The notes under the pieces were generated by a model that had not been told where the DNA came from, made no database searches, and saw nothing but the letters and a program-made list of their open reading frames with translations. Below are positions 1,342-44,543 of a DNA stretch of 64,000 nucleotides, in pieces. Position numbers and translations under genes: made by a program. Origin of the DNA: Rhodospirillales bacterium (GTDB lineage: Bacteria; Pseudomonadota; Alphaproteobacteria; Rhodospirillales; UBA2165); the NCBI GenBank assembly GCA_028345065.1, contig JAOMCN010000002.1, positions 13,044-77,043 on the forward strand, in the 5' to 3' direction. Position 1 is the stretch's first letter. Each line of letters opens with the position of its first letter.

Positions 1342-1722
1342 ATGACTGCCAAAATAATTGAGATGAAGCCAAAGTCTAAAGATACCGATGAAACGTCCAA
1401 TAAAAAAGTTACCTGCTTTGTCTTTGCCAATCCATGCACGGGAATTATTCGAAGGACCATCAAGTTGATGAAGGATGGCGTCCCCGTTCTTAAATATCTG
1501 GGTAAGGAGAAACTCTACAATACCTTTCTATTTACGGGTCAGGCTAATGAGGACACTCCCTTTCTGGCTGCCTTGGTTCCTTCAGACAATCCGTCCGCCA
1601 TCAGGTGGTATGCCAAAGAGTTAGAGACTTTGGCTCAGGATATTGAGAATGGGGTGTACGAGGGCGTTCCTACCTACTCTGCCGTTGAGGGGAATAATGA
1701 AGACGAGGTAGAAGACGACTAA
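1342..1722 (+). CDS. Hypothetical protein
   Basis: 126-aa ORF with AAGGAG RBS and an acidic tail. Confidence 0.65.
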   Translation: MTAKIIEMKPKSKDTDETSNKKVTCFVFANPCTGIIRRTIKLMKDGVPVLKYLGKEKLYNTFLFTGQANEDTPFLAALVPSDNPSAIRWYAKELETLAQDIENGVYEGVPTYSAVEGNNEDEVEDD

Positions 1723-1776
1723 ACTCAAAATACTAGCTAGAACATATGATGATGCCTCTCTGAATTTATCACGAAG

Positions 1777-2481
1777 ATGTGGAAGTGGATACTAGCCGTC
1801 TATGCCTTCACTGTCGGGGTCGGCCTTGAGACCCCGGTTCTACAGATCGTGTTTTGGATTTGTGTACTGATAAGTGTCGCGTGTTTTTTTATCTATTTTC
1901 TTATTGATCCCCTGGATAGCCTGAAAGATTCCCTTACCAAAATTTGGCAGAACTTCTTGGGGCGGATACCATTTGTCTCCTCTCCCAATTACTCACCCGA
2001 CGTCACGGCAATAATTATAGAAAAATATAAAATGGGAGAAAGTCTTGAAGACATTGCCGATCTTACCGGTAAGACAGTGACCTCGATCAGAGGGAAACTC
2101 GTCTCCGAAAATGTCTACTCACAGTTTAAAACGCAGAGGATGAATGCCATCCAGAGAGGGACGTTCCACGACGGTCATGCTCTCACGCCCCTGGAATTAA
2201 AATCCGGCCAGGAGTACCGCTTTGACGACCTCCTATCTTACCTGAATAAAGCCGGATACCTGAGGGTCAACCGAAGTTGTGAGATGGGTTATTATTCCGT
2301 ACATGGCGGCGTCGTGACTATTCATCCATTCGGTTGTTCAAATTCGATCAGTATCGACTACTTCGGAGACACCGTTGAGGCAATAACCGACGATTTGGAG
2401 AAGACCGTTCTACTGACGGTTGTCATCGAACCATTCTCTCCATCAGAGTACGACGCCGGTGAGGCATTTAACTCAGATTAG
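1777..2481 (+). CDS. Membrane-anchored protein with HTH-like segment and UvrB/Mfd domain-2-like (UvrA-interaction) module
   Basis: Two N-terminal hydrophobic helices; ESLEDIADLTGKTVTSIRGKLV; C-terminal LKSGQ...L...GYLRV...GYYSVHGGVVTIHP...IDYFGDTVEAI. Confidence 0.6.
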   Translation: MWKWILAVYAFTVGVGLETPVLQIVFWICVLISVACFFIYFLIDPLDSLKDSLTKIWQNFLGRIPFVSSPNYSPDVTAIIIEKYKMGESLEDIADLTGKTVTSIRGKLVSENVYSQFKTQRMNAIQRGTFHDGHALTPLELKSGQEYRFDDLLSYLNKAGYLRVNRSCEMGYYSVHGGVVTIHPFGCSNSISIDYFGDTVEAITDDLEKTVLLTVVIEPFSPSEYDAGEAFNSD

Positions 2482-2771
2482 ATTTGGCTTATTTTACCTC
2501 CGGTCTTTCCAGGTCTTCCATCCCGTAAACTACTCTCAGTAAAATTTTAGGCAACTGCACTTGACTTCACGATCCGGAAAGTGCATTTACCCGCCATAAC
2601 GTCCAAGGTGGCGCAACAGCGCTGCGATTTTTGAAAGAAAAACAAAGCAAAGAACCCCGGGCGTTCCTTTTTTCTCATACCGTTTTGTCCAATTGCGCTC
2701 GGATGACGGCGACGCGGCAGATTTGCGTGCACTTTAGTGCCCGCCGTTTTGGCGCCTAGGATACTCACGTT

Positions 2772-4064
2772 TTGACAATCATAAAATTCTCCGAGCTCGG
2801 TCTTATCGAGCCACTTACGCACGCCTTAGAAGCACAAAATTATACGACGCCCACACCAATCCAGGAAAAGGCTATCCCACAAATTCTCAATAACGCCGAC
2901 CTTCTGGGGATTGCTCAGACCGGCAGCGGGAAAACTGCTGCTTTCGTATTACCGATCGTACAACACCTGACTAATGGCAAACTCCGTCCCTCGGCGAAGG
3001 GTGCTTTGGTATTGATCCTGGCGCCAACCCGGGAATTGGCGTTACAAATTGGCGTTTTCGTCTCCGCATATGCAAAAAATTTACAGGTTCGACACACGGT
3101 CATCCTCGGCGGTGTAAATCAGAAGCGGCAGGTGAAGGCCTTATCCAGGGGCGTCGACATTTTAATCGCGACACCGGGGCGATTACTCGACCTCAAAAAG
3201 CAGGGACACGTACACTTGAATGATGTTAAATACCTGGTGCTCGATGAAGCTGACCGTATGCTGGACATGGGCTTCATCAAGGACGTACGAAAAATCGTTC
3301 GCGCCACGCCAAGGGACCGGCAAACGCTCTTTTTCTCTGCAACCATGCCGAAGGAAGTGGCCGGTCTGGCGGACGAAATTCTTCACGAACCCGTACGTAT
3401 TGATATTACCCCGAAGGCCATTACCGCTGACCGCATCGAACAACACGTTTACCACGTCCCGGCATTGAAGAAAGGTGCCTTACTTAAAGATCTCCTTTCC
3501 GACAATGCGCTCTACCGCGTGATCGTATTCACGCGAACGAAGCACCGGGCTAATAGGGTCGAAAAGCAATTGGGTCAGGCCAGGATAGAAGCTGCCGCCA
3601 TTCACGGGAATAAATCGCAGGCGGCGCGTCTGCGAGCGCTTGAGGGGTTCAAGGCGAACCGGGTCCGCGTTCTCGTTGCCACAGATATCGCAGCCAGAGG
3701 CATTGATGTCGACGGCGTCACACATGTTATTAATTTTGATCTACCGAACGAACCTGAAAGTTATGTCCATAGAATTGGTCGTACTGCCCGCGCGGGAACC
3801 GAAGGAATTGCACTCTCTTTCTGCGACCCGGAAGAGCGGCATCACCTCCGTGGCATCGAACGCCTGATTAAACGCTCAATCGATGTCGTCGAACACGACC
3901 GGAGCGACGGTGTTGAAAACCAGGAAGCCCCGGACACTCCGCAGGGCAAACCGGTCCAGAGACAACAGCCCAAGCGCCCGGCGGGAGATAACAGAAAACG
4001 CAAAAAGAATAGAAACCGCAGACAGAATAGAAACCGCAACCGGAACAATGCCAAAGCTGCTTAG
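2772..4064 (+). CDS. rhlE: DEAD-box RNA helicase (RhlE-like)
   Basis: Q motif, [39 protein letters not shown]; basic RNA-binding tail. Confidence 0.9.
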
Positions 4065-4079
4065 GTCGTCATTTGACAT

Positions 4080-4134
4080 CACCTATTGCCTACCTACCGT
4101 GATGGAGCACAAAAGATTAGGTAAGCAATAGGTG
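4080..4134. terminator. Inverted repeat between convergent genes (possible bidirectional terminator)
   Basis: cacctattgcctaccta / taggtaagcaataggtg with one G.U wobble. Confidence 0.45.
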
Positions 4135-4152
4135 GGGTTGGGGTCATATTTA

Positions 4153-5145
4153 TTAATGCTCCCTTCTCCTGTATGAAGCTCTCGTCATCCCGGAACGGAA
4201 GTTTCGATGGCGTTCATCTGCCTCGGGTTTCAGGGGAAAGGCGCAGAGGTGGATGACGTCGCCGTCATTTATCAATGCACCGCCTGCAATGGCATCTCCC
4301 TTGAAGCGATAGTCATCTCCCATGCCAACCGACGGGGAGCAGTTGATGTCCCCTGAAGAGAGGATCTTAAGAAATTCATTAATGGTATCTACGCCAATTA
4401 TCGATGGCCGCTGGTGGTGACCTTCTAGAGCATCGAGGGCATAACTCCGTACCAGCTTAGGAAGGAGCTTCCGTAATGTCGACGGCTTATCGAAGGCGTC
4501 GAAACCCGCCACATCTCCGTCGATTGCAAATAAGGCACCGGCCTGTCCTGGGACATGGTGTATGCTTTCGACGAATTCATCAACCCTCCCTCTCTCCGCT
4601 TCGAAGACGTCTGACATCGCATCCGAATCTGAATTAACGGAAAATGCAGCGGCCTTTTCAGCGACGTCCCGCCAAACTTCCCCTTGATCGGATCTCGCCG
4701 CCATTCCGCCGCTTAGGGAGTTTGATACCATTCTCGCTTTCTTTGCACGCCCCTTCGAAAAATAAGATCGATCAGAGGACCTGAAGTAATCGGAATTATA
4801 AGACCACCTCCCCTGCTCGACGCACGATACGGGAATGTCAATCTCGGAGTTCCCGGGTACCAGAATGCTCAAATTCAAAATGCGGTTTTGCTTAGCCCCC
4901 AGGAGTTCCTCTCCATCGAGAAGGAATACGGGCTTATCGCCGTTATTCAGAAACCTGAGGTCGGGAACCGATCCCGATTCCGATACCTCTGAGACGCTGG
5001 CACTCCCGTCTTTATGCGCTTCATCGAGGGTGAGATAGTCGATAGACCGACCCGTTACGCCGGTAAACGGAAACATCGTCAAACTCTTAAAGGAAATCGG
5101 TTTTCCCAACTCTAATTTATTTACAAAACTCTCTATTAACTGCAA
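4153..5145 (-). CDS. ARPP-1 / DUF6569 family protein
   Basis: GSVPxLxxxN...LLDGEELLGAKQNRILN...IPVSCVEQGRW, SDQGEVW. Likely TTG start at 5145 after AGGAGGAG (track start 5181). Confidence 0.75.
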   Translation of the reverse strand: MQLIESFVNKLELGKPISFKSLTMFPFTGVTGRSIDYLTLDEAHKDGSASVSEVSESGSVPDLRFLNNGDKPVFLLDGEELLGAKQNRILNLSILVPGNSEIDIPVSCVEQGRWSYNSDYFRSSDRSYFSKGRAKKARMVSNSLSGGMAARSDQGEVWRDVAEKAAAFSVNSDSDAMSDVFEAERGRVDEFVESIHHVPGQAGALFAIDGDVAGFDAFDKPSTLRKLLPKLVRSYALDALEGHHQRPSIIGVDTINEFLKILSSGDINCSPSVGMGDDYRFKGDAIAGGALINDGDVIHLCAFPLKPEADERHRNFRSGMTRASYRRREH

Positions 5146-5171
5146 TTTTCTCCTCCTATGGTTAGGAGAGG

Positions 5172-5205
5172 AGGATCTCACAGTAATGTGACAGATACGG
5201 TCCTA
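5172..5205 (-). promoter_or_regulatory. Copy 2 of GACC-N5-TGTCAC-N10-[-10] motif
   Basis: The minus strand reads TAGGACC-GTATC-TGTCAC-ATTACTGTGA-GATCCT upstream of the ARPP-1 gene. Confidence 0.45.
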
Positions 5206-5324
5206 CTCAACGGAAAAATTTTTATTTGCCCTAACTATTATTAGTATTATACGCCGGGATTACCTACTGTCGGATGAGAAGGGACAAATTACGGGTCATC
5301 GGACCACAGCCCCATCTAACTCTC

Positions 5325-6110
5325 TTACTCTTTTTTAGGCGGTTGAGGCCGGGAAAAGACGAGTTTATTGCCCGTTGAGGCGATCGCGTCGAGGGTATAG
5401 CCACCGGCATTAAAATCTTTCAAGCCATCAGCCCGATCCACACGGTTTTCCATGATCCAGCGTGCCATGGTACCGCGTGCATGCTTGGCGTAATACATGA
5501 GGGTGCGGGCCTCGCCATCCTTTACGTTCAGGAACTTCGCCTCAATCACCGTCCGTCCAAGCGCTTTGGCATCCACAGCCTTGAAATATTCGTTTGAGGC
5601 GAGATTGACCACGGTTGTGTCGGCATGATCGGCAAGGTCCACATTTAGTCGATCGGCGATGCGTGCGCCCCAGAAATCATAGAGGGATTTCCCGCGGCCA
5701 TTTGCCATTTTGGTGCCCATCTCAAGGCGATAAGGCTGGATCGCATCCATCGGACGTAAAACACCGTAAAGGCCTGAGAGGATGCGTAAATGATCCTGCG
5801 CATATGAGAGCGTGTCCTCGGAGAAGCTGTCAGCCTCCAGCCCCCAATAGACGTCGCCGTCAAAGGCGAGCCCGGCAGGCTTGGCGGTATTGCTCCTATT
5901 GTCGAGATTGAAGGCCTGAAACCGCTCGAAATTCATGGTAGCGAGATTGTCGCTAATATGCATAAGACGTTTCAGGTCTTCCGCAGTCTGGGTTTTAGCG
6001 ACAATCGCAAGCTCGTTCATATCATCGCGCAAGCGCGGCTGTGTAATCGGGACGCCCGTTTCGGTGGGGGCCATATTCATCTTTTTTGCAGGGGAGAGTA
6101 GCGTCAGCAT
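5325..6110 (-). CDS. yaaA: Peroxide stress protein YaaA (DUF328/UPF0246)
   Basis: LLSPAK, AFDGDVY, LRILSGLYGVLRP, YRLEMG, NLASNEY, AKHARG. Confidence 0.92.
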   Translation of the reverse strand: MLTLLSPAKKMNMAPTETGVPITQPRLRDDMNELAIVAKTQTAEDLKRLMHISDNLATMNFERFQAFNLDNRSNTAKPAGLAFDGDVYWGLEADSFSEDTLSYAQDHLRILSGLYGVLRPMDAIQPYRLEMGTKMANGRGKSLYDFWGARIADRLNVDLADHADTTVVNLASNEYFKAVDAKALGRTVIEAKFLNVKDGEARTLMYYAKHARGTMARWIMENRVDRADGLKDFNAGGYTLDAIASTGNKLVFSRPQPPKKE

Positions 6111-6559
6111 GATTTATCCTTTCCTCCTAACATCAACCCGGCAATCCAGGTTCGTATGCGTGGGTCTGTGACCACATGAAACTAAGCCCTTGCGTCAAGA
6201 ATTCAAGGCGCTTGATACGAAAAGTGCCCAGATTACAGTATTTTTCAGGGTCCGCTTTGGGGCGGTTCCCCGGAAATGGAGATGGGCGACCGTCGAGATC
6301 CGTTTGATACCCTTTTAATATTGCGAGGCGGTAACCGCCGGGGGAGCTTCAACGGGTGCGTTGTATTCGTCCTCGGTCATGACGAAATGATATCGGTCAC
6401 CGCGCCTCCGTATACAGCCAGATAGTGACGGGGCCGTCATTCACCAAATGGACACTCATATCTGCGCCAAACTGCCCCGTCTCGACATTGATGCCGTGAT
6501 CGGATAACAGGCTGCTAAATCGTTCGTAGAGCCGCTCTCCCTCCTCAGGATGGGCAGCC

Positions 6560-7279
6560 TCAACTTAATTTACAAATTATGGCCGAAGCGTCGTCACTTC
6601 CCCCGAGACGGTTGGCCTCCTCACAGAGGTTGAAGGCACATTCGGGTGATCTTTCTGAAACAACCGGCTTTATGACGTCGTCCGGAACGGCATCCGTGAT
6701 ACCGTCGGAAACAAGCACTAATATGTCGCCCGATCGGATGTCCTGCTGAATGAGGTGCGGCTTGGGAGCCATAGGATTTCCGCCGCCCAGGCACTGCGTA
6801 ACAATGCCCGTACGTTCCCCTGGATAAACGTCATCCTCCGAAATCTGGTTAATGCCAGCGTCGTGGATCCAATAGGCGCGGCTATCACCGACGTTGAAAA
6901 TGGTGCAACGTTCCTCGTTAATGACGGCTCCGACAATTGTGGTTCCCATGGCGTAGGGACTTCTACTACCTTCTTCCAACTCCCGAATATGATGATGGAC
7001 ATCGGCAATTGCTTCATCGATTTTAACTTCACCCCTGGAACTCTTAAAAAGATCATTCAGATGCTCTATCGCCGTGCGGCTTGCAATGTCGCCGCTACTG
7101 TGACCTCCGAGGCCATCCGCCAAAGTGACCAAGAAGGGCAATTGCGAGAGTTCAACCGATTTCCGACCACTATTTGTATCCTTTCCGAAAAGCAATATAT
7201 CTCCGATACCGCAGGCATCTTCGTTCTGATCCCGCCCAGATCCCCGTCTGGTAAAACCGTTAATCGTGCAAAACGTCAT
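6560..7279 (-). CDS. PP2C-family Ser/Thr protein phosphatase
   Basis: [38 protein letters not shown]. Overlaps the kinase stop by 4 nt. Confidence 0.9.
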
Positions 7280-8538
7280 TCGATACCAAGCGCCTTCCTA
7301 CGATCTTTATTGAGCTTCGTGATATCCTTATGCAATTGCCTGACATCCGACGGTCGTTCATCAGGAACCAAACTAACCGTTCGGGAGAGATAGGTATGAA
7401 GATTCTCACCGACCTCTTCCTTGAATTTAGTATCAAGAAGTCTCTTGGTATCTTCGTAGGTTTCGGGTACTTCCTCGGTTACTAATGCGATCGCAATAAC
7501 GCCCCAGGAGAAGACGTCCCAAGTATTCTGAAAAAGCATTTCGTTAGGGGCATGGGGGTCAGGGGTCCAGGGGGCCGAATAAAAATTGGCAACGGTAACC
7601 TTTTTCTTTCCTTCGAGCTCCCAATTCTTCGAAGCTCCAAAATCTGCCAATTTTATGATGCCCTCCACGTCTTCCTTATCAACTTCATCATTTTCATCCC
7701 TCCCAGAGTAATAATCAAAGAATATATTACTTGGTTTTAAGTCTCGATGTATGATCTCGTGCCCAAAAGCATAAACAAGACCATCCAAAATTGGTTCCAG
7801 TGTATCATAGGCATAAAACCACGGATCATCGTCATCCATGTTTTCTAAAATATCCCTGATTACCTCATCTTCTTCGTCCCGCGAAAGGTCCGGTCGCATG
7901 TTTCTAATTAATTTACGAAAAACCATTTCCTCATCACCAAATATTTCATCCAATGTGAAATCCAGCCAACCTGTAACCGTATACCATCGGTCGCTTCCCT
8001 CGTGCTTTCCGTAGTCGATAATTTCCAGAATATTCTCGTGCCCTTCAAGTTTCTCAAGAGCATTAACTTCCCTCTCGAAAGCCTCCTCACTGACGGGACT
8101 AGACCCGATATTCGGATGAAATAATTTCACGGCACACCAAACGTCCTCGCTGAGATCCCATGCCTTAAAGACGATCGATTGGCCGCTTTTCGCAAACAAT
8201 TTATGACAAACAAAACGATCACTGAAGATGTATTGTTTGAGATCCTTCGGCCACCACTTCGTAAAATTATCAAAATCTAAATCCTTCCCCGCCGGAACTA
8301 TCCACTTTTTGATTTCAGGTATCCACTTTGCCCCCTTTTTCTTCAGGGTTTCCTTATCCTTATAGACGGGGTTCAGGAATGCCCACCAATCTCGAAATTC
8401 CAGAGGATCCAGACCGGTCGGCGCATACCAGAGTTTGTTTTTATTATCCCACCTGGCCCCACGGCTTTTTGCGTCGTCCTTTTCATCAAACGGGACGTTC
8501 AGAAAAAGATTTGAAAGGGTCAAAAATGAAGCAGCCAT
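7276..8538 (-). CDS. Ser/Thr protein kinase with two N-terminal DUF5710 domains
   Basis: FLNVPFDEKDDAKSRGARWD..KLWY and FLNPVYKDKETLKKKGAKWI..KKWIVP; kinase motifs AVK, E(alphaC), HRDLKPSN, DFG, DVFSWG. Confidence 0.88.
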   Translation of the reverse strand: MAASFLTLSNLFLNVPFDEKDDAKSRGARWDNKNKLWYAPTGLDPLEFRDWWAFLNPVYKDKETLKKKGAKWIPEIKKWIVPAGKDLDFDNFTKWWPKDLKQYIFSDRFVCHKLFAKSGQSIVFKAWDLSEDVWCAVKLFHPNIGSSPVSEEAFEREVNALEKLEGHENILEIIDYGKHEGSDRWYTVTGWLDFTLDEIFGDEEMVFRKLIRNMRPDLSRDEEDEVIRDILENMDDDDPWFYAYDTLEPILDGLVYAFGHEIIHRDLKPSNIFFDYYSGRDENDEVDKEDVEGIIKLADFGASKNWELEGKKKVTVANFYSAPWTPDPHAPNEMLFQNTWDVFSWGVIAIALVTEEVPETYEDTKRLLDTKFKEEVGENLHTYLSRTVSLVPDERPSDVRQLHKDITKLNKDRRKALGIE

Positions 8539-8625
8539 TATATCACTCCCTGCAAGACCTAATTCCGTGTATATTGCTGTTTATTTTAGATTTGATAATA
8601 CCTGGAAAAGGGGAAAAACCCTAAC

Positions 8626-10887
8626 ATGTCGGATAAACGAGGGAATAAGCTCAAATGCAGCAGCTGTGGTGCTGCCTTTTACGATCTGAACAAACCCTCT
8701 CCGTCATGCCCTAAATGCGGAACCTTCCACGTACCCGCAAAGGCCGTTCGAAAACGGACGACCGCAAAAGGCAAACTCCCGCATAAGACGGAAAAGAATA
8801 ACAATAAACCAAATTCCGAACTCTGGGTCTGCGTCCTGGAGGGAGGAAGCTCGGAGGCAATCGTCGTTAGTGGTCCGCCTGAATTAAATACGTCAGCCCT
8901 AAGGGAACCGGGGTGGTATTTTTTTAAGCCTCTCAAATCAAGTGAAACAAAACCCCTCTCCCCTAAAACAGCCCTCCACATGATGGAAGAACCGAGTGCC
9001 GGGATACAATCCTACCTCCAGACACATGCCTTTAAAGGCATTGGTCCTGAGACGGCTAGAAAACTAGCCGTTCCCGAAACTGAAAATATATTCCAAGATC
9101 TATCCCGCCCGGCAACAGAAATTTCCGATGCCTACGGCATTAACGCCGCTACGGCGACCCTATTTGAGACGGCGTGGGCAAAAACTTCGGGAACGAGATA
9201 CCTTCAGATCATGCTGCGTCAATTAGGTCTCGGGAACGCCGTGGTTAAGCAAATCCGTGAAACTCTCGGGAGCGACGTTATTGAGCAGATCCTGTCAAAC
9301 CCATATGAACTAGTCAAAAAAATCAAATATTTCACATTTGAAGATGCGGAAAACATTTTCACGGGCCTTAACCTCGATCTCTCCAGTGATCAAAGAATAA
9401 TCTCGGCAATGGAACTCTGTCTCTACCGTATAGAAAAAAATAGAGGCCATACGTGTGCGCCTCTGGAAAGAGCCTTCAAGGATAACGATAAGCTTATTGA
9501 CGTCGATCACGATATCATGGAGGGGGTCCTGAGGTCCGCCACGGAACACTTTAAATTCGCGGAGTATGACGATCGGGAACATATCGCGACGGTCCCCTCC
9601 TTTGAAAGGGAAAATGAAATTGCATCGCGGATCGGGAACCTCCTATCGGTCGGCGCAACTCCCGATGAACACCTGGATTTTGACTTTGATCAACTGAACC
9701 TCCGGGCATCTCTGGAGTTATCCGATGAACAGAAGGAAGCCCTAAACGGCGCCATTAATTCACGGGTCTTTCTGATAACGGGTGGGCCCGGCACCGGAAA
9801 GACGAGAATGGTTGAGGCCATCGTCAAGGCGCTCAAATCCGAGAGCCGATACGTTACGTTATGCGCACCGACGGGGAGAGCCGCAAAGAGGCTTGAAGAG
9901 GAAGGCGGCCTCGGTAGCTTCAACCCGACGACGATCCACCTCCTCTTAACATATGTAAAGTCAGGAAAAGTGAAGGATGTCGGGACACTTATTATTGATG
10001 AGGCATCCATGGTCGATGTCGACCTGATGACTGAAACCCTGGATATACTGAATGAAAATAATCACCTCATTATGATTGGTGACGCTGATCAACTCCCCCC
10101 CGTGGGGCCCGGACAGGTATTTAAGGATCTCCTGAATTCAGATAAAGTACCCTTCGCACGCCTGACCGGTAACTTCCGGCAAACCGAAGGAAGTGAAATC
10201 ATAAAACTGGCTCGTGACGTGATCGCGGGAAACGACCCGCAGTTAAGTCGCGTCACCTCGGAGAAGGGCGTCATCTTTATCCCGGAGAGTGACGAAGATA
10301 AAATGCAGGGTCTCGTATTGGATCTCTATAACAGCAAACTCGTGCGGATGTTCAAACTCGAGACGTCGGATGAAGTCCAGATACTGGCACCTATGCGCAA
10401 GGGTGCCGTCGGTACGGAAGCGCTCAATCAGGAAATTCAGAAAACTCGATGGGTCAATGAGGAACCCCTCTTTCAGGAAGGAAACCGGAAACCCCTATAT
10501 CGGGGTGATAAAGTCATACAGACGTCTAATAATTATGAACTCGATGTAAGGAACGGCGATATTGGAATAATCCGAAGGGGGGGAGACAAAGGAGAGATCT
10601 TTGTTTCATACGCCACCAAGGATGTCGCCTACGACAGAGAGAGTTTGGAGGCACTCGAGCCTGCCTACGCGATTACAATCCACAAATCACAGGGATCCCA
10701 GTATCCAGCCGTCATAATTCCGATCGCTAGATCCCATCAATTCATGCTGGGAAGGAACCTCCTCTATACCGCAATAACAAGGGCCAAGGCCCACGTCGTC
10801 ATCGTCGGAGATGAGGCTGCCTTCAAGGCGGGAGTTAATGCCGCCTATAAGGACTTCCGTTATACGATGTTGAGACATTTTCTTTAA
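8626..10887 (+). CDS. RecD2-like SF1B helicase with N-terminal FYDLN (TIGR02300-like) zinc ribbon
   Basis: CSSCGAAFYDLNK...CPKCG; HhH KGIGPETA; NPY; GGPGTGKT; IIDEASM; GDADQLPPVGPG; AYAITIHKSQGS; LLYTAITRAK. Confidence 0.88.
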   Translation: MSDKRGNKLKCSSCGAAFYDLNKPSPSCPKCGTFHVPAKAVRKRTTAKGKLPHKTEKNNNKPNSELWVCVLEGGSSEAIVVSGPPELNTSALREPGWYFFKPLKSSETKPLSPKTALHMMEEPSAGIQSYLQTHAFKGIGPETARKLAVPETENIFQDLSRPATEISDAYGINAATATLFETAWAKTSGTRYLQIMLRQLGLGNAVVKQIRETLGSDVIEQILSNPYELVKKIKYFTFEDAENIFTGLNLDLSSDQRIISAMELCLYRIEKNRGHTCAPLERAFKDNDKLIDVDHDIMEGVLRSATEHFKFAEYDDREHIATVPSFERENEIASRIGNLLSVGATPDEHLDFDFDQLNLRASLELSDEQKEALNGAINSRVFLITGGPGTGKTRMVEAIVKALKSESRYVTLCAPTGRAAKRLEEEGGLGSFNPTTIHLLLTYVKSGKVKDVGTLIIDEASMVDVDLMTETLDILNENNHLIMIGDADQLPPVGPGQVFKDLLNSDKVPFARLTGNFRQTEGSEIIKLARDVIAGNDPQLSRVTSEKGVIFIPESDEDKMQGLVLDLYNSKLVRMFKLETSDEVQILAPMRKGAVGTEALNQEIQKTRWVNEEPLFQEGNRKPLYRGDKVIQTSNNYELDVRNGDIGIIRRGGDKGEIFVSYATKDVAYDRESLEALEPAYAITIHKSQGSQYPAVIIPIARSHQFMLGRNLLYTAITRAKAHVVIVGDEAAFKAGVNAAYKDFRYTMLRHFL

Positions 10888-11541
10888 ATGACTCGCAAAC
10901 CTCCCGACATCGACTTTGTTCTCAGGCGCCCCTTTATACAGTTTTCCGGAGATGAAATTCTGGCTGCCATCGAAGCCCATATTTTAACCGACGTCGCCAA
11001 TATTGAAATTGCAACTCTAGCCCTTGATGAACTCAAGCTACGAAAGAAAGCCAAACGAATTACGCTGGCGCAGAAACTATTCCGCAGTGCCGGGTTTAAA
11101 CCCATCCCCTGGCTGCAGTCGGCACGCGATAGCCTCACTATTCTGGAACGCCCGAAAAAGGGGAACTACCAAGGGCATTTATATGTCGTTCTTATCGAAG
11201 GATATACGAAGACGAATAAATACTATGGTGCTTATGTAGGTTCATCCAGATACCGCCCTGAGACGCGTTTCAAACAACATAAAGAAGGAAAGCACGCATC
11301 GAATATCGTAAACAGGCGTGGATTACACCCCCTCCAAAGCCTTCTCTGGCCCTGGCAGACAGTGCCGGGTGGCAAGACAGAACGCATACTTTGGGAGAGT
11401 GCTTTGAACAGATGTCTGGACCAAGTCATTCCAAAAGTCTCAGGTGACTTTCGTCCCTCAGGGGAGTGGCCCTCAGAATTTCAGAGACCACTTCAAGCCA
11501 TATTGAACAAAACGGCTGGGAATAATACTCTTGTTCTATAA
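10888..11541 (+). CDS. GIY-YIG-like nuclease
   Basis: HLYVVL...YVGSS...PETRFKQHKEG, plus a later conserved-looking E (LWES). Starts immediately after the RecD2 stop (TAAATG). Confidence 0.65.
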   Translation: MTRKPPDIDFVLRRPFIQFSGDEILAAIEAHILTDVANIEIATLALDELKLRKKAKRITLAQKLFRSAGFKPIPWLQSARDSLTILERPKKGNYQGHLYVVLIEGYTKTNKYYGAYVGSSRYRPETRFKQHKEGKHASNIVNRRGLHPLQSLLWPWQTVPGGKTERILWESALNRCLDQVIPKVSGDFRPSGEWPSEFQRPLQAILNKTAGNNTLVL

Positions 11542-11582
11542 CAATAAATCAACGGGTAATTCACTCAGGGAGGAAACATCGC

Positions 11583-13910
11583 GTGGCATCCTCTATAATG
11601 ATTAAAAATCCCATGTCCGACTTAGACCGGGAATCTTGTCTAAAGTGGTCTAAGTTAGCCAGAGAGAAAAATTATTTGCAGCCCATACAAAGGAAACACT
11701 TGTATGAGGCCGGTCGGTACGACGATTGGTATGTTTCGAAATTAGGTAAGGTTGCCGGAGCACTTAATGACCTTCGTAAACATCTAACCGGAAAAGAACA
11801 GAAAAATATAAATTCTATTCTCAAAAAACTTGATGCACCAAATACTGTCGTTAAATCAAATGACAAGAGTTCTGAACAAACCCCCAAACTTGGTGAGGCT
11901 GCGGAGAGTGGTGATCCGGGAGCCCAGTATATGCTGGGAGAGAGCTATTTTGATGGGGATGCCGATGAAGAAGACGATGCGGAAGCTGTCTCGTGGTTCA
12001 AAAAAGCTGCCGATCAAAATCATGCGGAGGCGCAGTGGCGACTGGGGTTCTGTTATTTGTTTGGATTTGGCGTTGAGGATGACGAAGCGGAAGCTGTCTC
12101 CTGGTATAGAAAAGCTGCCGATCAGGATCATGCGGACGCACAGTTCCAACTTGGGCACTGTTATTATTACGGGTCCGGCGTTGAAGAAGACGATGACGAA
12201 GCTGTCTCCTGGTTCAGAAAAGCTGCCGATCAGGATCATTCAGAAGCCCAGTGTTCGATGGGGTTCTGCTATTTTAACGGACATGGCGTTGAGGAAGACG
12301 AAGCGGAAGCTGTCTCCTGGTAAAGAAAAGCTGCCGATCAGGATGATGCGGAGGCGCAGTGGCGACTGGGAAACTGTTATTTTTACGGATGGGGCGTTGA
12401 AGAAGACGATGACGAAGCTATCTCCTGGCTTAGAAAAGCTGCCGATCAGGATCATCCAGAAGCCCAGTGCCGATTGGGAAACTGTTATCTAGGTGGATAT
12501 GGTGTTGATGAAGACGATGCGGAAGCTGTCTCCTGGTATAGAAAGGCTGCCGATCAGGATGATGCGGAGGCGCAGTGGCGACTGGGAAACTGTTATCTAG
12601 GTGGACATGGTGTTGAGGAAGACGAAGCGGAAGCTGTCTCCTGGTATAGAAAAGCTGCCGATAAAAATCATGCGGTGGCGCAGTGGCGACTGGGAAACTG
12701 TTATCTAGTTGGACTTGGTGTTGAGGAAGACGATGACGAAGCTGTCTCCTGGTATAGAAAAGCTGCTGATCAGGATAATGCTGAGGCGCAGGAACGACTG
12801 GGTAACTGTTATCTTCACGGATGGGGCGTTGAGAAAGACGAAACTGAAGCTGTCTCCTGGTATAAAAAGGCTGCTGATCAGGATAATGCTGAGGCGCAGG
12901 AACGACTGGGCAACTGCTATCTAAGCGGATGGGGCGTTGAGGAAGACGAAGCTGAAGCTGCCTCCTGGTTAAAAAAGGCTGCTGATCAGGATAATGCTGA
13001 GGCTCTCAATATGTTGGGAGCTTGTTATCATCATGGTCACGGTGTCGAACCGGATATTGAAAAAGCAAAAATGTATATCCAAAAATCTTTAGACGCTGGG
13101 TATGAGGAAGACGAAGATGACAAATACGAACGCGCTTTAATCGGGCAAGCTAAAACGAAAGAGGATACTTTAACCAGCGCAAATGTCATCCCACTCTTTC
13201 CCGGAAAGGCAGTCAGTGATTTTCGGTCAGAAGCACTTAACCAAGATAGTGAAATCAAACCTGCTCCCAAAGAAGACACAAAACAGCAAACCGGAACTCG
13301 TAAAAAAGAGGATTTAAGTACACCTGCCCTTCAAATTATGGTTCCCGGGCACAACCTTCGCCAAAAATTTGATGCCCGCCACATACAAACACATGATCTA
13401 CTTAAAGAACCTGAAGGCCTAACACTGGAGTTTAAATCCTCAGCGCGGTGGGACTACCTGCAGGAAAAGGAAACAAAGGTGCCAATCCATGCTGTCATCA
13501 GGACAGTCGGAGGTTTCATGAATGGAAGGGGGGGAACCCTTCTCATCGGCATCGACGATAACGGAAAAATACTAGGTGTCGAGAAGGACATTGAACTTTC
13601 TGCGCCAAAGCAAAACGCGGATGGCTACATGCTTTGGTTAACATCAGTCATCGGGAATACACTTGGCGGGGAATTCCCGAAATCCCTGATTGCGGATATT
13701 CAGTTTGAAGAATTCGAGGGTAAGTCTATCTGTAGGATAGACGTGGATGAATGCCTCCTAGATAAGGGCATCTACGCCAACTCAAACAAACTTGGATTGG
13801 AAAATGACACGTTTTTTCTAAGACAAGGTAACTCCACTCAACCACTAACGCCAAAGGCTACCGCAGATTACCTTGAACAGAGACGCCGAAGAAGAACTTT
13901 GAAGTCTTGA
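11583..13910 (+). pseudogene. Sel1-repeat (x11) - Schlafen/AlbA_2 fusion interrupted by one in-frame TAA (12321-12323)
   Basis: Track ORFs 11583..12323 and 12474..13910 are in the same frame. TGG TAA AGA stands where several sister repeats have TGG TAT AGA. C-terminal EGLTLEFKSS...GGFMNGRGGTLLIGIDD is AlbA_2. Could also be a sequence error. Confidence 0.75.
11910..13097 (+). repeat. Eleven tandem 108-bp Sel1-coding repeats
   Basis: 36-aa units of the form xxAEAQxxLGxCYxxGxGVEEDxxEAVSWYRKAADQ, highly similar at the DNA level. Confidence 0.9.
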
Positions 13911-13935: not shown

Positions 13936-14487
13936 CTACGCCGGAACCACTCCCAACTTCTCATCCCTCTGCCTTATCCACCAAATCACCGGTAATGCGA
14001 TCAAGATCATCCAGGCTTTTCCAATAATCTGGCCACTCAAGTAATCCAAGCTCCCAAATGCCAACTGCAAAAATAGTACACTATCGACGATCAATCCGAC
14101 GATGCCACTCAGGAATACCGCAAGAATAAGTCGTTTCTCCTGGAGTGGTGTATACACGGCAAAGTCAGCTAACTCAGATAACAGGAAAGCCGTACCTGAA
14201 GCTATTACCAATGCAGGGGGGGCAACAAATGCTGACAGAATAGCGCCTGCGATAATAGCACCTAGAGCCCAAACTTTACCCAGACGTCGTTGCACCAAAT
14301 CTCTCAATACAAGGGCCAAACCAATCATAAGGACGCCGCTCGGCGCCATGATATCGAAGCCGACAGGTATCAGGCAGGGACTATTGGGCGGACATACGGC
14401 CCCAAAATTACCTATCATCCAATTTGCGGCAGGAATTGTCAGTATAAATGCGACAAGATATCCGTAACCTTCATTGCGAGCAGTCAC
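13936..14487 (-). CDS. VUT family (YhhQ-like) queuosine-precursor transporter
   Basis: AANW, GLALVLRDLVQ, IASGTAFLLSELADFAVYTPL, VDSVLFLQLAFGS, GQIIGK; multi-TM; adjacent to the dpd/queC cluster. Confidence 0.8.
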   Translation of the reverse strand: MTARNEGYGYLVAFILTIPAANWMIGNFGAVCPPNSPCLIPVGFDIMAPSGVLMIGLALVLRDLVQRRLGKVWALGAIIAGAILSAFVAPPALVIASGTAFLLSELADFAVYTPLQEKRLILAVFLSGIVGLIVDSVLFLQLAFGSLDYLSGQIIGKAWMILIALPVIWWIRQRDEKLGVVPA

Positions 14488-14604: not shown

Positions 14605-14695
14605 TTAAAACCATCAGAATACGTAATAACTGTAGAAAAACTGACCTATTCTGCTAAAATAGAAACCACTAATAACTGTTTGTTTGTCGATCCTC

Positions 14696-15628
14696 ATGAC
14701 GCTCATTTTAACTTCATGCACCAACCGAAAGCGGTATCAACCGGAACCCTATTTAGATACCTTAAACTTACCGCGTGGAACCTTGGAAAAAACGGCTTCT
14801 AATTGGGTATCTCGACGAAATAAAGCAAACTCACACTACGAAGCGGGATCTCTCTATGTCGGCAGACCTATGAAGGACGCCCGGAATGCCGCCCAACAAA
14901 TCAACACCTCCCTCTACATTATTTCTGCAGGACTGGGCCTGATATCCATCTTGGATACAATTCCCTCGTACAATTTGACTGTCCAAAGCAAGTCACAGGG
15001 ATCAATTCAGAAAAAAATTATTGAACCAATAAGACCAATGGATTGGTGGAGCGCGTTGAATACTACCCTGGACAAGAAAAACCCTATAGCCGGTCTCGTC
15101 AAAATTCACAAAAGGGAACTTACCCTCATCGCGTGCCCCGAAGTTTACGCCCAGATGATTTTGGATGATGTTTTAACTTTAAACGATGAAGATATTAGCA
15201 CCATTCGAATTTTCGGACCGAGAACTCCTGATAACTTCCCCGTCCGTTTTAGAAACCTAATCATGCCGTACGATGAGCGTTTCGACGGTCCTGACAGTCC
15301 GCTACCCGGTACACGGACAGATTACCCCCAGAGGGTACTCTTTCATTTTGTAAAGGACATACTCCCAGGTAGTTCTTCCATGGATGACATTACGGTCCAC
15401 CGAGAAAGTATTAAAGAACGGATGGAAACCATGAGACGTCCAGCATTAATCAGGCGTACACCGTTAAATGACGAACAGATTATAAACCTCATAAGAAATT
15501 GCTGGGAAACAGCTGAAGGTAAATCAAGCAAAATGCTCCGCGTTTTAAGAGACAGGGAAAAAGTTGCCTGCGAGCAGGGTCGCTTTGCCAATTTATTCAA
15601 GCTAGCCAAGGAAAGATACAGTCTATGA
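14696..15628 (+). CDS. DpdC-like / YaaA-DUF6884-like accessory protein of the Dpd modification module
   Basis: N-terminal ILTSCTNRK, LYxG, YIISAGLGL, IPSYNLT resemble the YaaA/DUF328-like fold; first gene of the dpdA operon (track start 14684). Confidence 0.55.
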   Translation: MTLILTSCTNRKRYQPEPYLDTLNLPRGTLEKTASNWVSRRNKANSHYEAGSLYVGRPMKDARNAAQQINTSLYIISAGLGLISILDTIPSYNLTVQSKSQGSIQKKIIEPIRPMDWWSALNTTLDKKNPIAGLVKIHKRELTLIACPEVYAQMILDDVLTLNDEDISTIRIFGPRTPDNFPVRFRNLIMPYDERFDGPDSPLPGTRTDYPQRVLFHFVKDILPGSSSMDDITVHRESIKERMETMRRPALIRRTPLNDEQIINLIRNCWETAEGKSSKMLRVLRDREKVACEQGRFANLFKLAKERYSL

Positions 15629-38528: not shown

Positions 38529-40214
38529 ATGGCAATTTCTGTTGATACTTCTGGTGGCTGGATGCCGGAGAAAAGTTTACTGGACTCCCAACAAGTGGCT
38601 ATCCTGGATAATCTAATTCGGTGGGCTGAGGAATCCAAAATGCCTGATGACGCCAAATCTCAGACACACTGGATACAAGGTTTTGCCGGATCCGGAAAAA
38701 CTATTTTGCTCATCTATGCCATGCTGCAAACAATAAGGCTTCAACCCGACGCTAAAATCTGTTTTGTGACTTACACCTCAGCCTTAAAGGACTTGGTCCT
38801 TTCTGCCCTGAAACCTGATGGTGATGAAGCTGTAGAAATCATCAGATTCGATCAAATGGCAGAAGCCATCAAATCACAAAATAGGTTTGATTACGTCTTC
38901 GTCGATGAAGTGCAGGATATAAAAAAATCTCACCTAAAATTATTAATAAGGAGTACCAATAGACTTGTTATAGCCGGTGACCCGGACCAAAGTATTTATC
39001 AAAACAGGGTGTCCGAAAAAGAGTTACAAGAAGCACTTAAGGTTCCAGACGATTGCCTTTATGAACTGTCTATACTCTACCGACTGCCCCCGAAGGTTGT
39101 AGCGATTGCCAACACTATACTTCCCGAAACTAAAATGATTTTTGCAGAAAATGGTCGACGAGGAGAACCAGGAACAGCTATCACAACGCATTACACAAAT
39201 AAACAGAAGGAGGCCGAAACCGTCTATAAATACGCAGACGAGTTATCAACTCCCAAGAAGCCTTCTCTAATTCTATTGCCATCACACGGTGGTATTTATG
39301 ACTTTGCTAAATTAGTCTGCAAGTCCAGAGATCTCCCACCCCCACCAGAATCCGTATACAGGGGAATGCGCGATTATTCGGAATTCAACCAAAGTTTGAA
39401 GGATAACGGCCTAAATTTAATGTATTTTGGAAATGATAACGGTGACTTAAATGTCTCGAAAGTTCATGGACAAACTTACATAATGACATACCACAGTGCC
39501 AAGGGTCTCGATTTTCCTCAAGTTTTCCTGCCAGGATTGAACGTCGACCTTACCATTTGGAGGGACAACGAAATAATATCCAAGAGGTTATTTTTTGTAG
39601 GTATTACCAGAACCTCAAAGGATCTCTACATGTCATTTAATTCACATGAACCTCACCGTTACTTAAATGAAGTAGAAAAGTTAACTGGTGGTATGATTGA
39701 ATTTGAAGGAACCTCTGAACCAGAAAAAGCGACGCAAGCCTCCCCTAACCCGGTGGAAGCGCTTATTGGGGAAGTGGTCGAAGATGCAATTTCTGACAAG
39801 ATAGTGGAAGAACTCAAGGACGCAATTGCTGACGAGATAGCAGAAGGACTCGTCAATGGCATTGATGACGATGAAGAGAAGAAAGGGGAAGATGAAATAC
39901 CCTCCTCAACTGGCATAGTTGAACCTACTTCCTCCCCTGAACCGGTAAAAACGAAGGAGGCCCCCCCTGAACCAGTGAAAAAGAAGCAGGCGTCAACTTC
40001 TAAACCAGCGAAAAAGAAGCAAGCGTCACCTTTTAAACCCGTGAAAAAGAAACAGGCGTCTACTTCTAAACCCGTGAAAAAGAAACAGGCGTCTACTTCT
40101 AAACCTGTGAAAAAGAAACAGGCGTCTACTTCTAAACCCGTGGAAACGAAACAGGCTTCCCCTGAACCAGTGAAAAAGAAGCAGGCTTGGTGGAAACGAC
40201 TTTTCGGAGACTAG
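38529..40214 (+). CDS. UvrD-like SF1 helicase with acidic and Lys-rich low-complexity tail
   Basis: GFAGSGKT, VFVDEVQD, AGDPDQSIY, TYHSAKGLDF, FFVGITR; 3 nt after the dpdD stop. Confidence 0.85.
   Translation: MAISVDTSGGWMPEKSLLDSQQVAILDNLIRWAEESKMPDDAKSQTHWIQGFAGSGKTILLIYAMLQTIRLQPDAKICFVTYTSALKDLVLSALKPDGDEAVEIIRFDQMAEAIKSQNRFDYVFVDEVQDIKKSHLKLLIRSTNRLVIAGDPDQSIYQNRVSEKELQEALKVPDDCLYELSILYRLPPKVVAIANTILPETKMIFAENGRRGEPGTAITTHYTNKQKEAETVYKYADELSTPKKPSLILLPSHGGIYDFAKLVCKSRDLPPPPESVYRGMRDYSEFNQSLKDNGLNLMYFGNDNGDLNVSKVHGQTYIMTYHSAKGLDFPQVFLPGLNVDLTIWRDNEIISKRLFFVGITRTSKDLYMSFNSHEPHRYLNEVEKLTGGMIEFEGTSEPEKATQASPNPVEALIGEVVEDAISDKIVEELKDAIADEIAEGLVNGIDDDEEKKGEDEIPSSTGIVEPTSSPEPVKTKEAPPEPVKKKQASTSKPAKKKQASPFKPVKKKQASTSKPVKKKQASTSKPVKKKQASTSKPVETKQASPEPVKKKQAWWKRLFGD
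39936..40187 (+). repeat. 30/33-bp tandem repeats encoding KPVKKKQASTS-like units (~8 copies)
   Basis: aaacccgtgaaaaagaaacaggcgtctacttct near-identical at 40035, 40068 and 40101, with degenerate flanking copies. Confidence 0.9.
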
Positions 40215-40344: not shown

Positions 40345-41568
40345 ATGGATATGAAAAAAGGCTTTTACTCCTGTATATCGATCACTGTTTCTGAATGGCA
40401 AACTTGGCAGTTATTTCGGGAACTAAGAACCTCCGCAAATCGCTGGGTAGAAATTCAAATCGATGAACAAGGTAATATAAGTGACGACAGGGCAATTATA
40501 GAATTGTTTAACCGAGGCCCAGACCTAACCCCTGATTTTGAGCAAGATATTCTTATTGTTGTTGCTAAAGTTTTTGATGATCAGATGCAGGAGCGACTAA
40601 CTCATGATACAAACGACATCTACTATTGTGGTATTGATTTAGTAGATTCTGTATTTGCGGTCACGGAACGCAATACTAAACTACTCGAGGTTCGGGGAAT
40701 AAATTTACAAAAACCCTTGTTTGAACAACAGTGGTTAAAGTTCCGTTCCAACGATGATATAAGCAGATCATTAAAAAATGGAAACTACTTTGATATCATC
40801 GAACAGAATGAAGACAATACTAAATCAGTTGGCATTGGAGATCCGGTAAAAGACCAAGTAGCCAATGCTTTGGGGTTTCGATTTTATCCAGATATATCAG
40901 ATAACAATTGGACGCCATCTGCCTTAACTGAGTTATTTAGTTTTCAAAGAAAACTACCCATCTCCGGAGGGGACGACCCCACCCCTACTCACACTGATCT
41001 TGACTACTGTATTGACCTTGGCCTTCTAGCAAGACGACGTTTAGATAAGAAACTCACCAAAAGCTTTCTCGAATATGGTGGATATATTAATTATAAAACT
41101 GTCGATGACTTAGTAGCTTTTGTTTTGGATACAAACGTCGAAGCGATTTTCGATAAAATTCAAGAAGATGAACCGCTAGATTTTATAGTGCGTCCCGAGG
41201 CGCATTTGTTATTTTTGAAGTGGAAGGAAAAGTTTTTTGAAAACTCAAAGATCGAATGGGAAGGTCTAAGAAGCGACGTAAAACGTCTTATCGAAGGCGA
41301 CAAAAACGTGATTTCCCAACAAGCCCTCTTCTTACTCACGTGTTATGGTGGTCCAGCCGCCTTATCAAACCTCCCCAAAGACTTTAAAAAAGAAGTTGGA
41401 CTGGAGACTTCTCCCCCTTTCTCAGAAATTATCGATCCTGTAACACCTTTCCAACTCACTTGGGGCCAAGTTTTCATCGAAAAAAACCAGGATCTACTCG
41501 GGAAAATAACCATATACTTTGCATATGCCGTATTACTTTTGCAGGTCGTTTTGATTTTATTTTTTTAA
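40345..41568 (+). CDS. Hypothetical protein with C-terminal TM anchor
   Basis: 407-aa ORF co-oriented with the dpd operon; ends ITIYFAYAVLLLQVVLILFF. Confidence 0.7.
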   Translation: MDMKKGFYSCISITVSEWQTWQLFRELRTSANRWVEIQIDEQGNISDDRAIIELFNRGPDLTPDFEQDILIVVAKVFDDQMQERLTHDTNDIYYCGIDLVDSVFAVTERNTKLLEVRGINLQKPLFEQQWLKFRSNDDISRSLKNGNYFDIIEQNEDNTKSVGIGDPVKDQVANALGFRFYPDISDNNWTPSALTELFSFQRKLPISGGDDPTPTHTDLDYCIDLGLLARRRLDKKLTKSFLEYGGYINYKTVDDLVAFVLDTNVEAIFDKIQEDEPLDFIVRPEAHLLFLKWKEKFFENSKIEWEGLRSDVKRLIEGDKNVISQQALFLLTCYGGPAALSNLPKDFKKEVGLETSPPFSEIIDPVTPFQLTWGQVFIEKNQDLLGKITIYFAYAVLLLQVVLILFF

Positions 41569-41699
41569 ACTCTCCGTATGCATTAATTACTACAATGACA
41601 TCTGCGAAAACAAATCTCTCTAATATGCTTTTTTGAGAGTATCCACGACCCTAGACATTTGCTGCGATACCTTCCCTTCCTTCATAAGAAGGTTATGCC

Positions 41700-42128
41700 C
41701 TATCGCTTCGAACCAAAAGTGATCTGGGTTTTACCGAGGTTAATGTAAATAGTATTACCTTCATTTCTACAGGTGGGGCATTGGTTTCTACGTTTGAGTA
41801 CAATTAGCTGGCTCTCGCAATTGCCTTGTGCAAATTGATGGGCAAAGGTAACCGCTGTTTGCGGTTTTGTCCCCAGACCACATTTGTAGCATTTTATAGA
41901 CATTTTTGCATTACAGGCATCAAATCTTCGCGCCGTCCAACCTCCCAACCGCCTTCTATAACCTTCGTCCCTTATTTTGTTTCGATCTCTTTGGATCTGC
42001 CTTTCAATACGCCGATCGTCAGCTTCGGTTTGCAACTTTATTCGTTGCTTTCTGGATAAATGATCTCCATTTGATTTTCTGCTCATTTCGAGACCACGCT
42101 GTATGTTACGGGACAGTGTTTTGTACAT
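41700..42128 (-). CDS. Basic hypothetical protein with zinc ribbon
   Basis: CYKC...CPTC; AGGAG RBS. Confidence 0.6.
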   Translation of the reverse strand: MYKTLSRNIQRGLEMSRKSNGDHLSRKQRIKLQTEADDRRIERQIQRDRNKIRDEGYRRRLGGWTARRFDACNAKMSIKCYKCGLGTKPQTAVTFAHQFAQGNCESQLIVLKRRNQCPTCRNEGNTIYINLGKTQITFGSKR

Positions 42129-42189
42129 TTATAAAACTCCTCTTTATGTATTAGAGACGTTACTTTTCTGGAAAACTAATTGGTTCCGG

Positions 42190-42564: not shown

Positions 42565-42600
42565 GCGAGCTTTCCTTTTACAAAAGTTGTGGGAAAATAA

Positions 42601-42632
42601 AAAAAAGTGCCGACCATGAATGACCGGCACTT
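42601..42632 (-). terminator. Intrinsic terminator
   Basis: Stem aagtgccg / cggcactt with an A-run on the plus strand (U-tail on the minus strand). Confidence 0.55.
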
Positions 42633-44535: not shown

Positions 44536-44543
44536 TTAATCTT

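Follow-up and report, generated by a model that had tools for sequence, protein, structure and literature searches.

The KKP cassette of Pf prophages is described as a phosphorylation-based toxin/antitoxin (TA) system against lytic phages, in which kinases are the toxin and a phosphatase is both the antidote and the point hit by a phage protein, which makes it an example of a kinase/phosphatase cassette that is a defence system in its own right (Nat Commun 2024, PMC11341870). Prokaryotic Schlafen proteins (pSlfn1-55; RorSlfn5, EcoSlfn7) are reported as single-gene anti-phage tRNases with varied sensors and the catalytic motif Ex4(E/D)xK (Perez Taboada et al., Nat Microbiol 2026, PMC13056530). 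ARPP proteins, proposed to act on sugar moieties, are found together with HIRAN, a domain that binds DNA ends (Iyer, Burroughs, Anantharaman, Aravind, Viruses 2022, PMC9503650). Here we compare these systems with a locus of six open reading frames (ORFs) at positions 6560-13910 of a 64,000-nucleotide (nt) stretch of DNA from a Rhodospirillales bacterium (contig JAOMCN010000002.1, positions 13,044 to 77,043; hereafter the window). The source genome is 66.75% complete, in 116 contigs. The locus encodes a PP2C phosphatase and a DUF5710-kinase (module A), a Zn-ribbon RecD2 helicase and a GIY-YIG-like protein (module B), and an interrupted Sel1-repeat/Schlafen fusion (module C).

We think the chances about even that this part of a defence island is a hot spot of recombination and holds three separable modules, not one system. 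The island runs at least from an ARPP-1 gene (~4.1 kb) to the end of the Dpd (7-deazaguanine DNA modification) genes. Gene content, catalytic motifs, rarity, the RecD2/GIY-YIG pairing and cassette swapping are direct observations. The three-module reading follows from the swapping of neighbours in related loci, where those neighbours are known systems (Dpd, PsyrTA, DISARM), and from domain-wise mosaicism in the kinase and the GIY-YIG protein. The earlier note on this DNA took all six genes for one module. That claim is not supported, as the kinase/PP2C pair is absent in both of the other loci with a visible upstream side of Zn-RecD2 (L004 and L021, the latter in genome G478), and the Sel1-Schlafen gene is swapped and inverted in one related locus (L004), replaced by PsyrTA in another (L005) and missing in a contig variant. 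The check for conserved synteny that the note had proposed brought up only RecD2 with GIY-YIG, so that phosphorylation gating of the helicase and nuclease would be deduced from adjacency in one lineage. The locus does not stand as one system of six genes; if its parts work as inferred, it holds three defence candidates.

One metagenome scan gave four related loci (L004-L007). L004 is ~90-91% identical to the window at the nucleotide level over RecD2 and GIY-YIG (8634-11484; 90.5%), and again from 13812 into the Dpd genes. By blastn against L004, positions 11485-13811 form a swappable cassette slot, flanked on both sides by this ~90-91% identity and with its content replaced: in L004, the space between GIY-YIG and YhhQ is taken by an intact Sel1-Schlafen gene that runs on the opposite strand and encodes 574 amino acids (aa), with 9 Sel1 repeats and 33% identity to that of the window. 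Upstream of RecD2 in L004 there is no kinase/PP2C but the final part of a Sel1-like ORF, on the same strand. Homology of L004 to the window starts only at 8634, and the intergenic region is therefore a recombination boundary. The divergent 87-bp region that the earlier note pointed to is indeed present.

L005 matches the window at 88.9% nucleotide identity as far as mid-GIY-YIG, where the two sequences part. Downstream and convergent (1564-3537) are a complete PsyrA (482.9 bits) and, at the contig end, a C-terminal PsyrT (264.6 bits), so PsyrTA, a known defence TA system, occupies in L005 the slot of Sel1-Schlafen in the window. In L006, a GIY-YIG protein of 50% aa identity, with no nucleotide match, is preceded by Sel1 repeats and the beginning of a Schlafen domain. 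In L007 (2-14337), frameshifted GIY-YIG fragments lie beside DrmA (743.8 bits) and DrmB (265.1 bits) of DISARM; the same locus has an 843-aa unknown ORF, a NERD-helicase (RTasNERD-Hel, 112.8 bits) and an open-ended 1215-aa ORF with no Pfam or PADLOC match. Dpd genes are absent from the stretches seen at L005, L007 and G478. The sole recurring pair is RecD2 with GIY-YIG, found in three of the four loci with a visible 3' end of Zn-RecD2 (window, L004, L005).

Contigs of four seawater runs were aligned to the window at ≥85% identity. Since depth sums over organisms, we take the figures only qualitatively: depth resembles that of the flanks over PP2C, RecD2 and the first half of GIY-YIG, is ~10-fold lower over the kinase core (7609-8410) and is near zero over Sel1-Schlafen. 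One contig joint (7256 to 8546) skips or replaces the kinase, and another (10953 to 13881, with 37 other letters) lacks GIY-YIG and Sel1-Schlafen. Further joints connect 4039 to 8641, 4142 to 6560 and 5205 to 6559, and in the latter two the stretch of a YaaA-type gene is skipped or replaced. Cassette swapping at fixed breakpoints among near-identical marine genomes offers a natural experiment in the rebuilding of defence islands.

Every family at the locus is small and metagenomic. None of 400 class genomes has the kinase family, none of 40 relatives has RecD2 (E ≤ 1e-30), and none of 100 relatives has the GIY-YIG family, for which 400 other class genomes gave one weak match. Their absence from these genomes marks the kinase, RecD2 and GIY-YIG genes as accessory. 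By RecD2 alignment, 27 of 401 class genomes have RecD2-like genes, of which only that of G478 is full-length including the Zn-ribbon (2.6e-216); RecD2s sharing the N-terminal 200 residues number 7. A scan of genome contigs gave two weak GIY-YIG-only matches (L001, L002); G297 has a 126-aa GIY-YIG ORF (L009). The GIY-YIG family comprises 32 clusters. Ten proteins, including the query, are listed for the kinase at E ≤ 1e-10; eight of these are DUF5710-kinase relatives at full or nearly full length and one more is a weak 241-aa match. In plasmids and phages we found only distant kinase domains (≤28.6% identity in plasmids); plasmids gave no P0004 match and no match to the Zn-RecD2 N-terminus, and viral contigs no relatives of the kinase or GIY-YIG alignments.

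Alleles differ domain by domain. The kinase allele P0037 is 87-92% identical to the window protein at residues 1-80 and 361-400, and only 32-52% at residues 121-320. The hypervariable part of the kinase/phosphatase pair is the catalytic core rather than a sensor domain. In one group of GIY-YIG proteins, identity is 70-86% in the helical domain and 36-63% in the nuclease domain.

All activities and triggers that we propose for the three modules are predicted from sequence and by analogy with described systems. In module A, the PP2C gene (6560-7279, minus strand, 239 aa in the ORF list) overlaps by 4 nt the gene of the kinase with two DUF5710 stretches (7276-8538, minus strand, 420 aa). The phosphatase matches PP2C_2 (8.9e-14, 52 bits against a cut-off of 24) and PP2C (5.2e-9) in Pfam, above cut-off, and scores 126.7 bits against the Stp1/IreP equivalog, below the cut-off of 230. 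What we take to be the acidic metal-site motifs of PP2C are visible in its translation. The kinase protein, of the Hanks Ser/Thr type, matches Pkinase (1.8e-21) and, in two stretches, DUF5710 (1.7e-20); the family alignment has K138, E157, H264-R265-D266, N271 and D299-G301 (DFG) as invariant residues. Against the MAD6 kinase of MADS it reaches 79.4 bits, below the NCBIfam equivalog cut-off of 460. Two more distant DUF5710-kinases (P0040, P0041) have a ~60-residue insertion in the kinase domain annotated Sigma70_r1_1 (PF03979), an annotation also found on one of the nearest Schlafen representatives. Literature on DUF5710 yielded only unrelated genomics. By analogy with KKP, module A would be a translationally coupled pair in which the kinase is the toxic or effector part, checked by the phosphatase until infection upsets the balance.

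Between modules A and B lies the 87-nt divergent intergenic region (8539-8625). The Zn-ribbon RecD2 follows at 8626-10887 (plus strand, 753 aa). It exceeds the NCBIfam equivalog cut-off of 500 for TIGR01448 (552.9 bits) and has the Pfam domains AAA_30 (5.1e-38), HHH_RecD2 (2.3e-15), SH3_13 (2.5e-11) and UvrD_C_2 (3.8e-20), with a FYDLN_acid Zn-ribbon (CxxC...CxxC, 2.8e-9) at the N-terminus. Residues C11, C14, C28 and C31 do not vary in the alignment, nor do Walker A, Walker B and the later motifs. The protein is predicted to be a superfamily 1B (SF1B) helicase with 5'-3' ATP-dependent DNA unwinding.

The start of the next gene (10888-11541, plus strand) abuts the RecD2 stop, with a 0-nt gap. 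Its two-domain product of 217 aa matches GIY-YIG (PF01541) below threshold (0.0019; 18.9 bits, where the cut-off is 22.6); in the family, 24 of 30 proteins match at E ≤ 0.05, the best at 5.8e-4. In the family alignment Y99, Y116, G118, R127 and H131 are invariant and E170 is at least 90% conserved. A model from the 30-member alignment (predicted local distance difference test, pLDDT, 90.1) has an N-terminal helical domain followed by a beta-beta-alpha-alpha-beta-alpha domain. In a wide structural search the full model drew mainly matches of the helical domain (Z ≤ 7.3), and the only chains covering the C-domain were of Slx1 (Z 2.7-3.8). With a low-confidence model of the C-domain only (pLDDT 56.7), the top four of 48,161 chains were HIGLE (Z 5.1), Slx1 (4.7 and 4.5) and I-TevI (4.7). 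Foldseek against PDB returned nothing at E ≤ 0.001, a PDB sequence profile search nothing relevant, and ESM Atlas only clusters of 'hypothetical protein', one with GIY-YIG on 14% of its members. We read the protein as a predicted divergent GIY-YIG nuclease.

In module B, the helicase and nuclease would load on foreign or damaged DNA and cut it, with the conserved helical domain as the adaptor or docking part and the nuclease domain as an exchangeable effector; ARPP-1 may be a third component. A literature search for RecD2 with GIY-YIG as a defence system found nothing related. If the parts work as inferred, the pair is a helicase-nuclease candidate present in no defence catalogue.

Module C begins 41 nt after the GIY-YIG gene (11583-13910, plus strand). 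As the earlier note had read, the frame is interrupted: its first ORF (11583-12323, 246 aa) ends in an in-frame TAA at 12321-12323, after which the frame continues to 13910. Other Sel1 repeats have Y, F or L at this position, and the 108-bp repeat consensus has TAT. This stop is as assembled, and contig depth is low around 12323. From a TTG at 12474, a product of 478 aa could still be made. As assembled, the window's Sel1-Schlafen is predicted to be disabled or truncated. The Sel1 array (11 repeats, 4+7) is encoded by a 108-bp tandem DNA repeat (Tandem Repeats Finder, 11959-13003, plus strand, 9.7 copies, 82% matches), which is prone to recombination and misassembly.

The C-terminal SLFN_AlbA_2 domain (Pfam, 2.5e-14) has an intact Ex4ExK motif, read as EGLTLEFK and kept in the L004 homologue too; E332, E337 and K339 are invariant in 120 relatives. 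The domain has 4,791 representatives at E ≤ 0.001. We scanned the partners of 117 of the top 150, leaving out 30 short ones (~240 aa or less) and 3 of more than 1,000 aa. SLFN_AlbA_2 is present in each of the 117, and Sel1 in only two, one of which is the window's own cluster. Other partners are diverse (bPH, BrxL ATPase, GmrSD_N, REC, STAND, LRR, TIR, WD40). Literature on Sel1-Schlafen as an anti-phage protein yielded nothing related, and PMC13462974 mentions no Sel1, TPR or RecD. Among the 55 pSlfn architectures, supplementary file 21 and 11 others of the 26 files of PMC13056530 contain no Sel1 or N-terminal-TPR class. File 21 also has 558 'unannotated fusion' clusters, among which the Sel1-Schlafen type could be. 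In module C, the Sel1 repeats would sense a phage protein and the Schlafen domain would cleave tRNA. If this activity is true, the protein is a candidate tRNase of the Schlafen type that senses through Sel1 repeats and has its domains in an order not on the published list.

An ARPP-1 protein is encoded at 4153-5181 (minus strand; Pfam PF20208, 6.7e-97, 324.8 bits), outside the span covered by the earlier note, which missed it. It is 42% identical to the ARPP-1 encoded divergently from Zn-RecD2 in G478 (L021), and is the only neighbour also found beside that distant orthologue. On the 8-kb contig of G478, ARPP-1 and Zn-RecD2 are accompanied, downstream of the helicase, by a pair of small unknown ORFs, a nuclease of the PD-(D/E)xK type and an exonuclease of the DEDDh type, and there is no kinase, PP2C, GIY-YIG family member or Schlafen; its orf201 was considered as a GIY-YIG family member and rejected (hhalign probability 0.08). 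ARPP-1 is rare (7 of 401 class genomes) and its other contexts match published ones, namely a WYL regulator (G173, G342) and ARG with a Nudix regulator (G373, the canonical form). A chance occurrence beside both Zn-RecD2 loci is therefore unlikely (although n = 2). A pairing of ARPP with RecD2 is missing from the three two-gene neighbourhoods that the consulted passages of PMC9503650 name. If the parts work as inferred, this would be the first genomic link of the enigmatic ARPP-1 to a helicase.

In G437, ARPP-1 has a DUF2130 gene (L032:9069-10040) two genes away. Just upstream of the window (L035, G000:C29:1-13100) there is a second ARPP-1 gene (1530-2591, 9.5e-92) with a 231-aa unknown ORF and vWA/YfbK, followed further on by a WYL-WCX regulator (9188-10168), a TPR-methyltransferase and a PD-(D/E)xK protein (12289-13047). 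From this content, an accessory, conflict-type region extends well left of the window.

Several points weigh against three separable modules. The close loci L004, L005 and L007 all belong to a single marine lineage, which makes them a small and non-independent sample. The context count omits the eight DUF5710-kinase relatives and the weak 241-aa match, among which a recurrent kinase-RecD2 link is possible, and likewise the distant RecD2 orthologue P0051. The GIY-YIG assignment depends on sub-threshold Pfam matches and low Z-scores. Modules B and C may also cooperate, as a Sel1-Schlafen gene or remnant adjoins GIY-YIG in three of five loci (window, L004, L006), which makes a serious rival of a three-gene system composed of Zn-RecD2, GIY-YIG and, as the sensor/RNase arm, Sel1-Schlafen, with kinase/PP2C separate. 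The Sel1-like ORF end upstream of RecD2 in L004 would suit such a system, as would pSlfn43, a GIY-YIG-pSlfn fusion with one member in the supplement of PMC13056530. However, Sel1-Schlafen varies in orientation and position (downstream on the same strand, downstream on the opposite strand, upstream), L005 has PsyrTA, and neither the G478 contig nor one contig variant has a Schlafen gene. Published pSlfn proteins are described as acting as single genes (PMC13056530), and in the window Sel1-Schlafen carries a stop while RecD2 and GIY-YIG are intact. We therefore consider the three-gene system unlikely. We regard as quite unlikely a bolder proposal, in which ARPP-1, Zn-RecD2 and a nuclease that can be exchanged (GIY-YIG in the window; in G478, PD-(D/E)xK and DEDDh) form an undescribed helicase-nuclease immunity system that, in this lineage, recruited a DUF5710-kinase/PP2C switch, with a hypervariable kinase core under arms-race selection, and a Sel1-Schlafen arm. 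If true, ARPP-1/RecD2 would be a modular, phosphorylation-tuned defence with dual DNA/RNA targeting.

The idea of one phosphorylation-gated immunity, in which kinase and PP2C switch helicase, nuclease and RNase, draws on the 87 nt shared by the divergent operons. A 219-nt contig piece (8422-8640) bridges the kinase N-terminus and the RecD2 start, suggesting that the arrangement is stable in the population or near relatives, which again counts against separable modules. The MkoA model is matched both by the kinase (99.7 bits, positions 7-283) and by the P-loop of the helicase (36 bits, 613-655), so a kinase joined to an SF1 helicase has precedent in one defence protein. Yet the pair is missing upstream of RecD2 in L004 and G478, L004 homology begins at the RecD2 start, and the family sizes differ (eight DUF5710-kinase relatives among ten listed proteins including the query, against 32 GIY-YIG clusters); we find the six-gene system improbable. 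We give least credence to a role outside immunity, with RecD2, ARPP-1 and YaaA in DNA repair or damage tolerance, kinase/PP2C in ordinary signalling, and Dpd adjacency incidental. It would fit a helicase that passes the RecD2 equivalog cut-off, the YaaA-type and ARPP-1 neighbours with the sugar and HIRAN proposals for ARPP (PMC9503650), and a contig depth of PP2C and RecD2 like that of flanking genes in four seawater runs. It fits poorly with absence from 40-100 relatives, extreme allelic mosaicism, neighbours that are known defence systems (Dpd, PsyrTA, DISARM) in every related locus, and closest PADLOC matches to defence helicases.

The locus sits directly beside the Dpd genes, which with a YhhQ-like transporter (13936-40214) we treat as context only. 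They start with Vut_1/YhhQ-like (13936-14487), include DndB-like, TGT-like and QueC (3.8e-72) proteins, and match the NCBIfam equivalogs DpdG (223.9 bits) and DpdD (451.6 bits); none of the six proteins matches a Dpd model. ORF, Pfam and NCBIfam scans bear out the gene content, tight packing (-4, 87, 0 and 41 nt) and Dpd-side setting described in the earlier note; its kinase, PP2C, Sel1 and Schlafen calls are solid, its helicase passes the RecD2 equivalog cut-off, and its GIY-YIG call stays below threshold. The note also expected that no named system would match the combination and that PADLOC would give no full-system match, and both expectations held: for the six proteins PADLOC gave generic domain matches only, none of them system-specific, and a literature search found no such system. 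In PADLOC the kinase matches the MkoA, mad6 and PD-T4-6 models and the helicase typeIV_RecD (240.3 bits) and PDC-S68 (219.8 bits); no family matches the GIY-YIG-like protein or the Schlafen part.

On the other side lies a YaaA/DUF328-type protein (5325-6110, minus strand; H2O2_YaaD, 6.9e-84), probably context rather than a module part. It matches DUF6884 weakly (1.5e-8), as does the first ORF of the Dpd cluster, in the DpdC position (14684-15628, 1.2e-6), which hints that the two may be distantly related. Further out, a 234-aa ORF (1777-2481) upstream of a DEAD-box helicase has the UvrB interaction domain (2.4e-11) as its sole Pfam match. After the DpdK-like gene (38529-40214), five ORFs at 40345-46326 have no Pfam match at 1e-8; a DUF2130 protein (46425-47774, 4.1e-81) and, from 48769, metabolic genes follow. 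Synteny did not place the island borders: G001, a genome of the same genus, lacks both a DNA match and YaaA, and the DEAD helicase is only 43-46% identical in relatives. No tRNA gene was found in the 64-kb window. A pattern scan for promoters and terminators gave no more than shuffled sequence (12 versus 10.7; 6 versus 10.2), with no promoter-like match inside the 87-nt intergenic region.

How, then, does the locus compare with described systems? Module A resembles KKP in having a Ser/Thr kinase with an adjacent phosphatase in one cassette. The likeness is one of gene content, and the locus does not have the KKP gene set: KKP has two kinases where we see one kinase and one PP2C, the kinase here has two DUF5710 repeats, and no prophage was seen around the locus. 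The 217-aa protein of module B, as modelled and aligned, resembles GIY-YIG nucleases (I-TevI, Slx1, HIGLE, UvrC N-domain; the defence enzyme PD-T4-3) in its beta-beta-alpha-alpha-beta-alpha core and a conserved Y...Y-x-G...R-x3-H...E, and differs by its sub-threshold sequence score, by its extra N-terminal helical domain and by a gene coupled to that of RecD2. The combination of an SF1 helicase with a nuclease recalls Mokosh type I and the helicase-nuclease systems in PADLOC (typeIV_RecD, PDC-S68, Gabija GajB, Nhi, AbiO). MkoA joins a kinase domain to an SF1 helicase, and both the window kinase and the helicase match it in part; the six proteins, however, include no PLD nuclease, no long MkoA-type protein and no MkoB match, which places them outside Mokosh type I. 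Unlike in the PADLOC systems, the nuclease here is GIY-YIG-like and the helicase is a RecD2 with an N-terminal Zn-ribbon.

The surroundings are reminiscent of the ARG-centred ARPP systems (PMC9503650) in that ARPP-1, a phosphatase, nucleases and a helicase lie together in a neighbourhood that varies and evolves rapidly. They fall outside that group, as the scanned window ORFs (≥150 aa for ADP_ribosyl_GH) include no ARG (ADP_ribosyl_GH) and no rhodanese-phosphatase, and the phosphatase here is PP2C. Module C comes closest to a described group. By domain and motif its protein belongs with the pSlfn proteins, as a Schlafen/AlbA_2 domain with the catalytic motif, fused to a variable putative sensor and encoded in a defence island. 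It differs in that its repeats are of the Sel1 type and N-terminal, with Schlafen at the C-terminus, whereas the nearest class, pSlfn9 (a Slfn-TPR fusion with 36 members and a defence score of 0.75; PMC13056530), has Slfn and then TPR. The window's reading frame is interrupted by a stop, and the related gene in L004 is intact.

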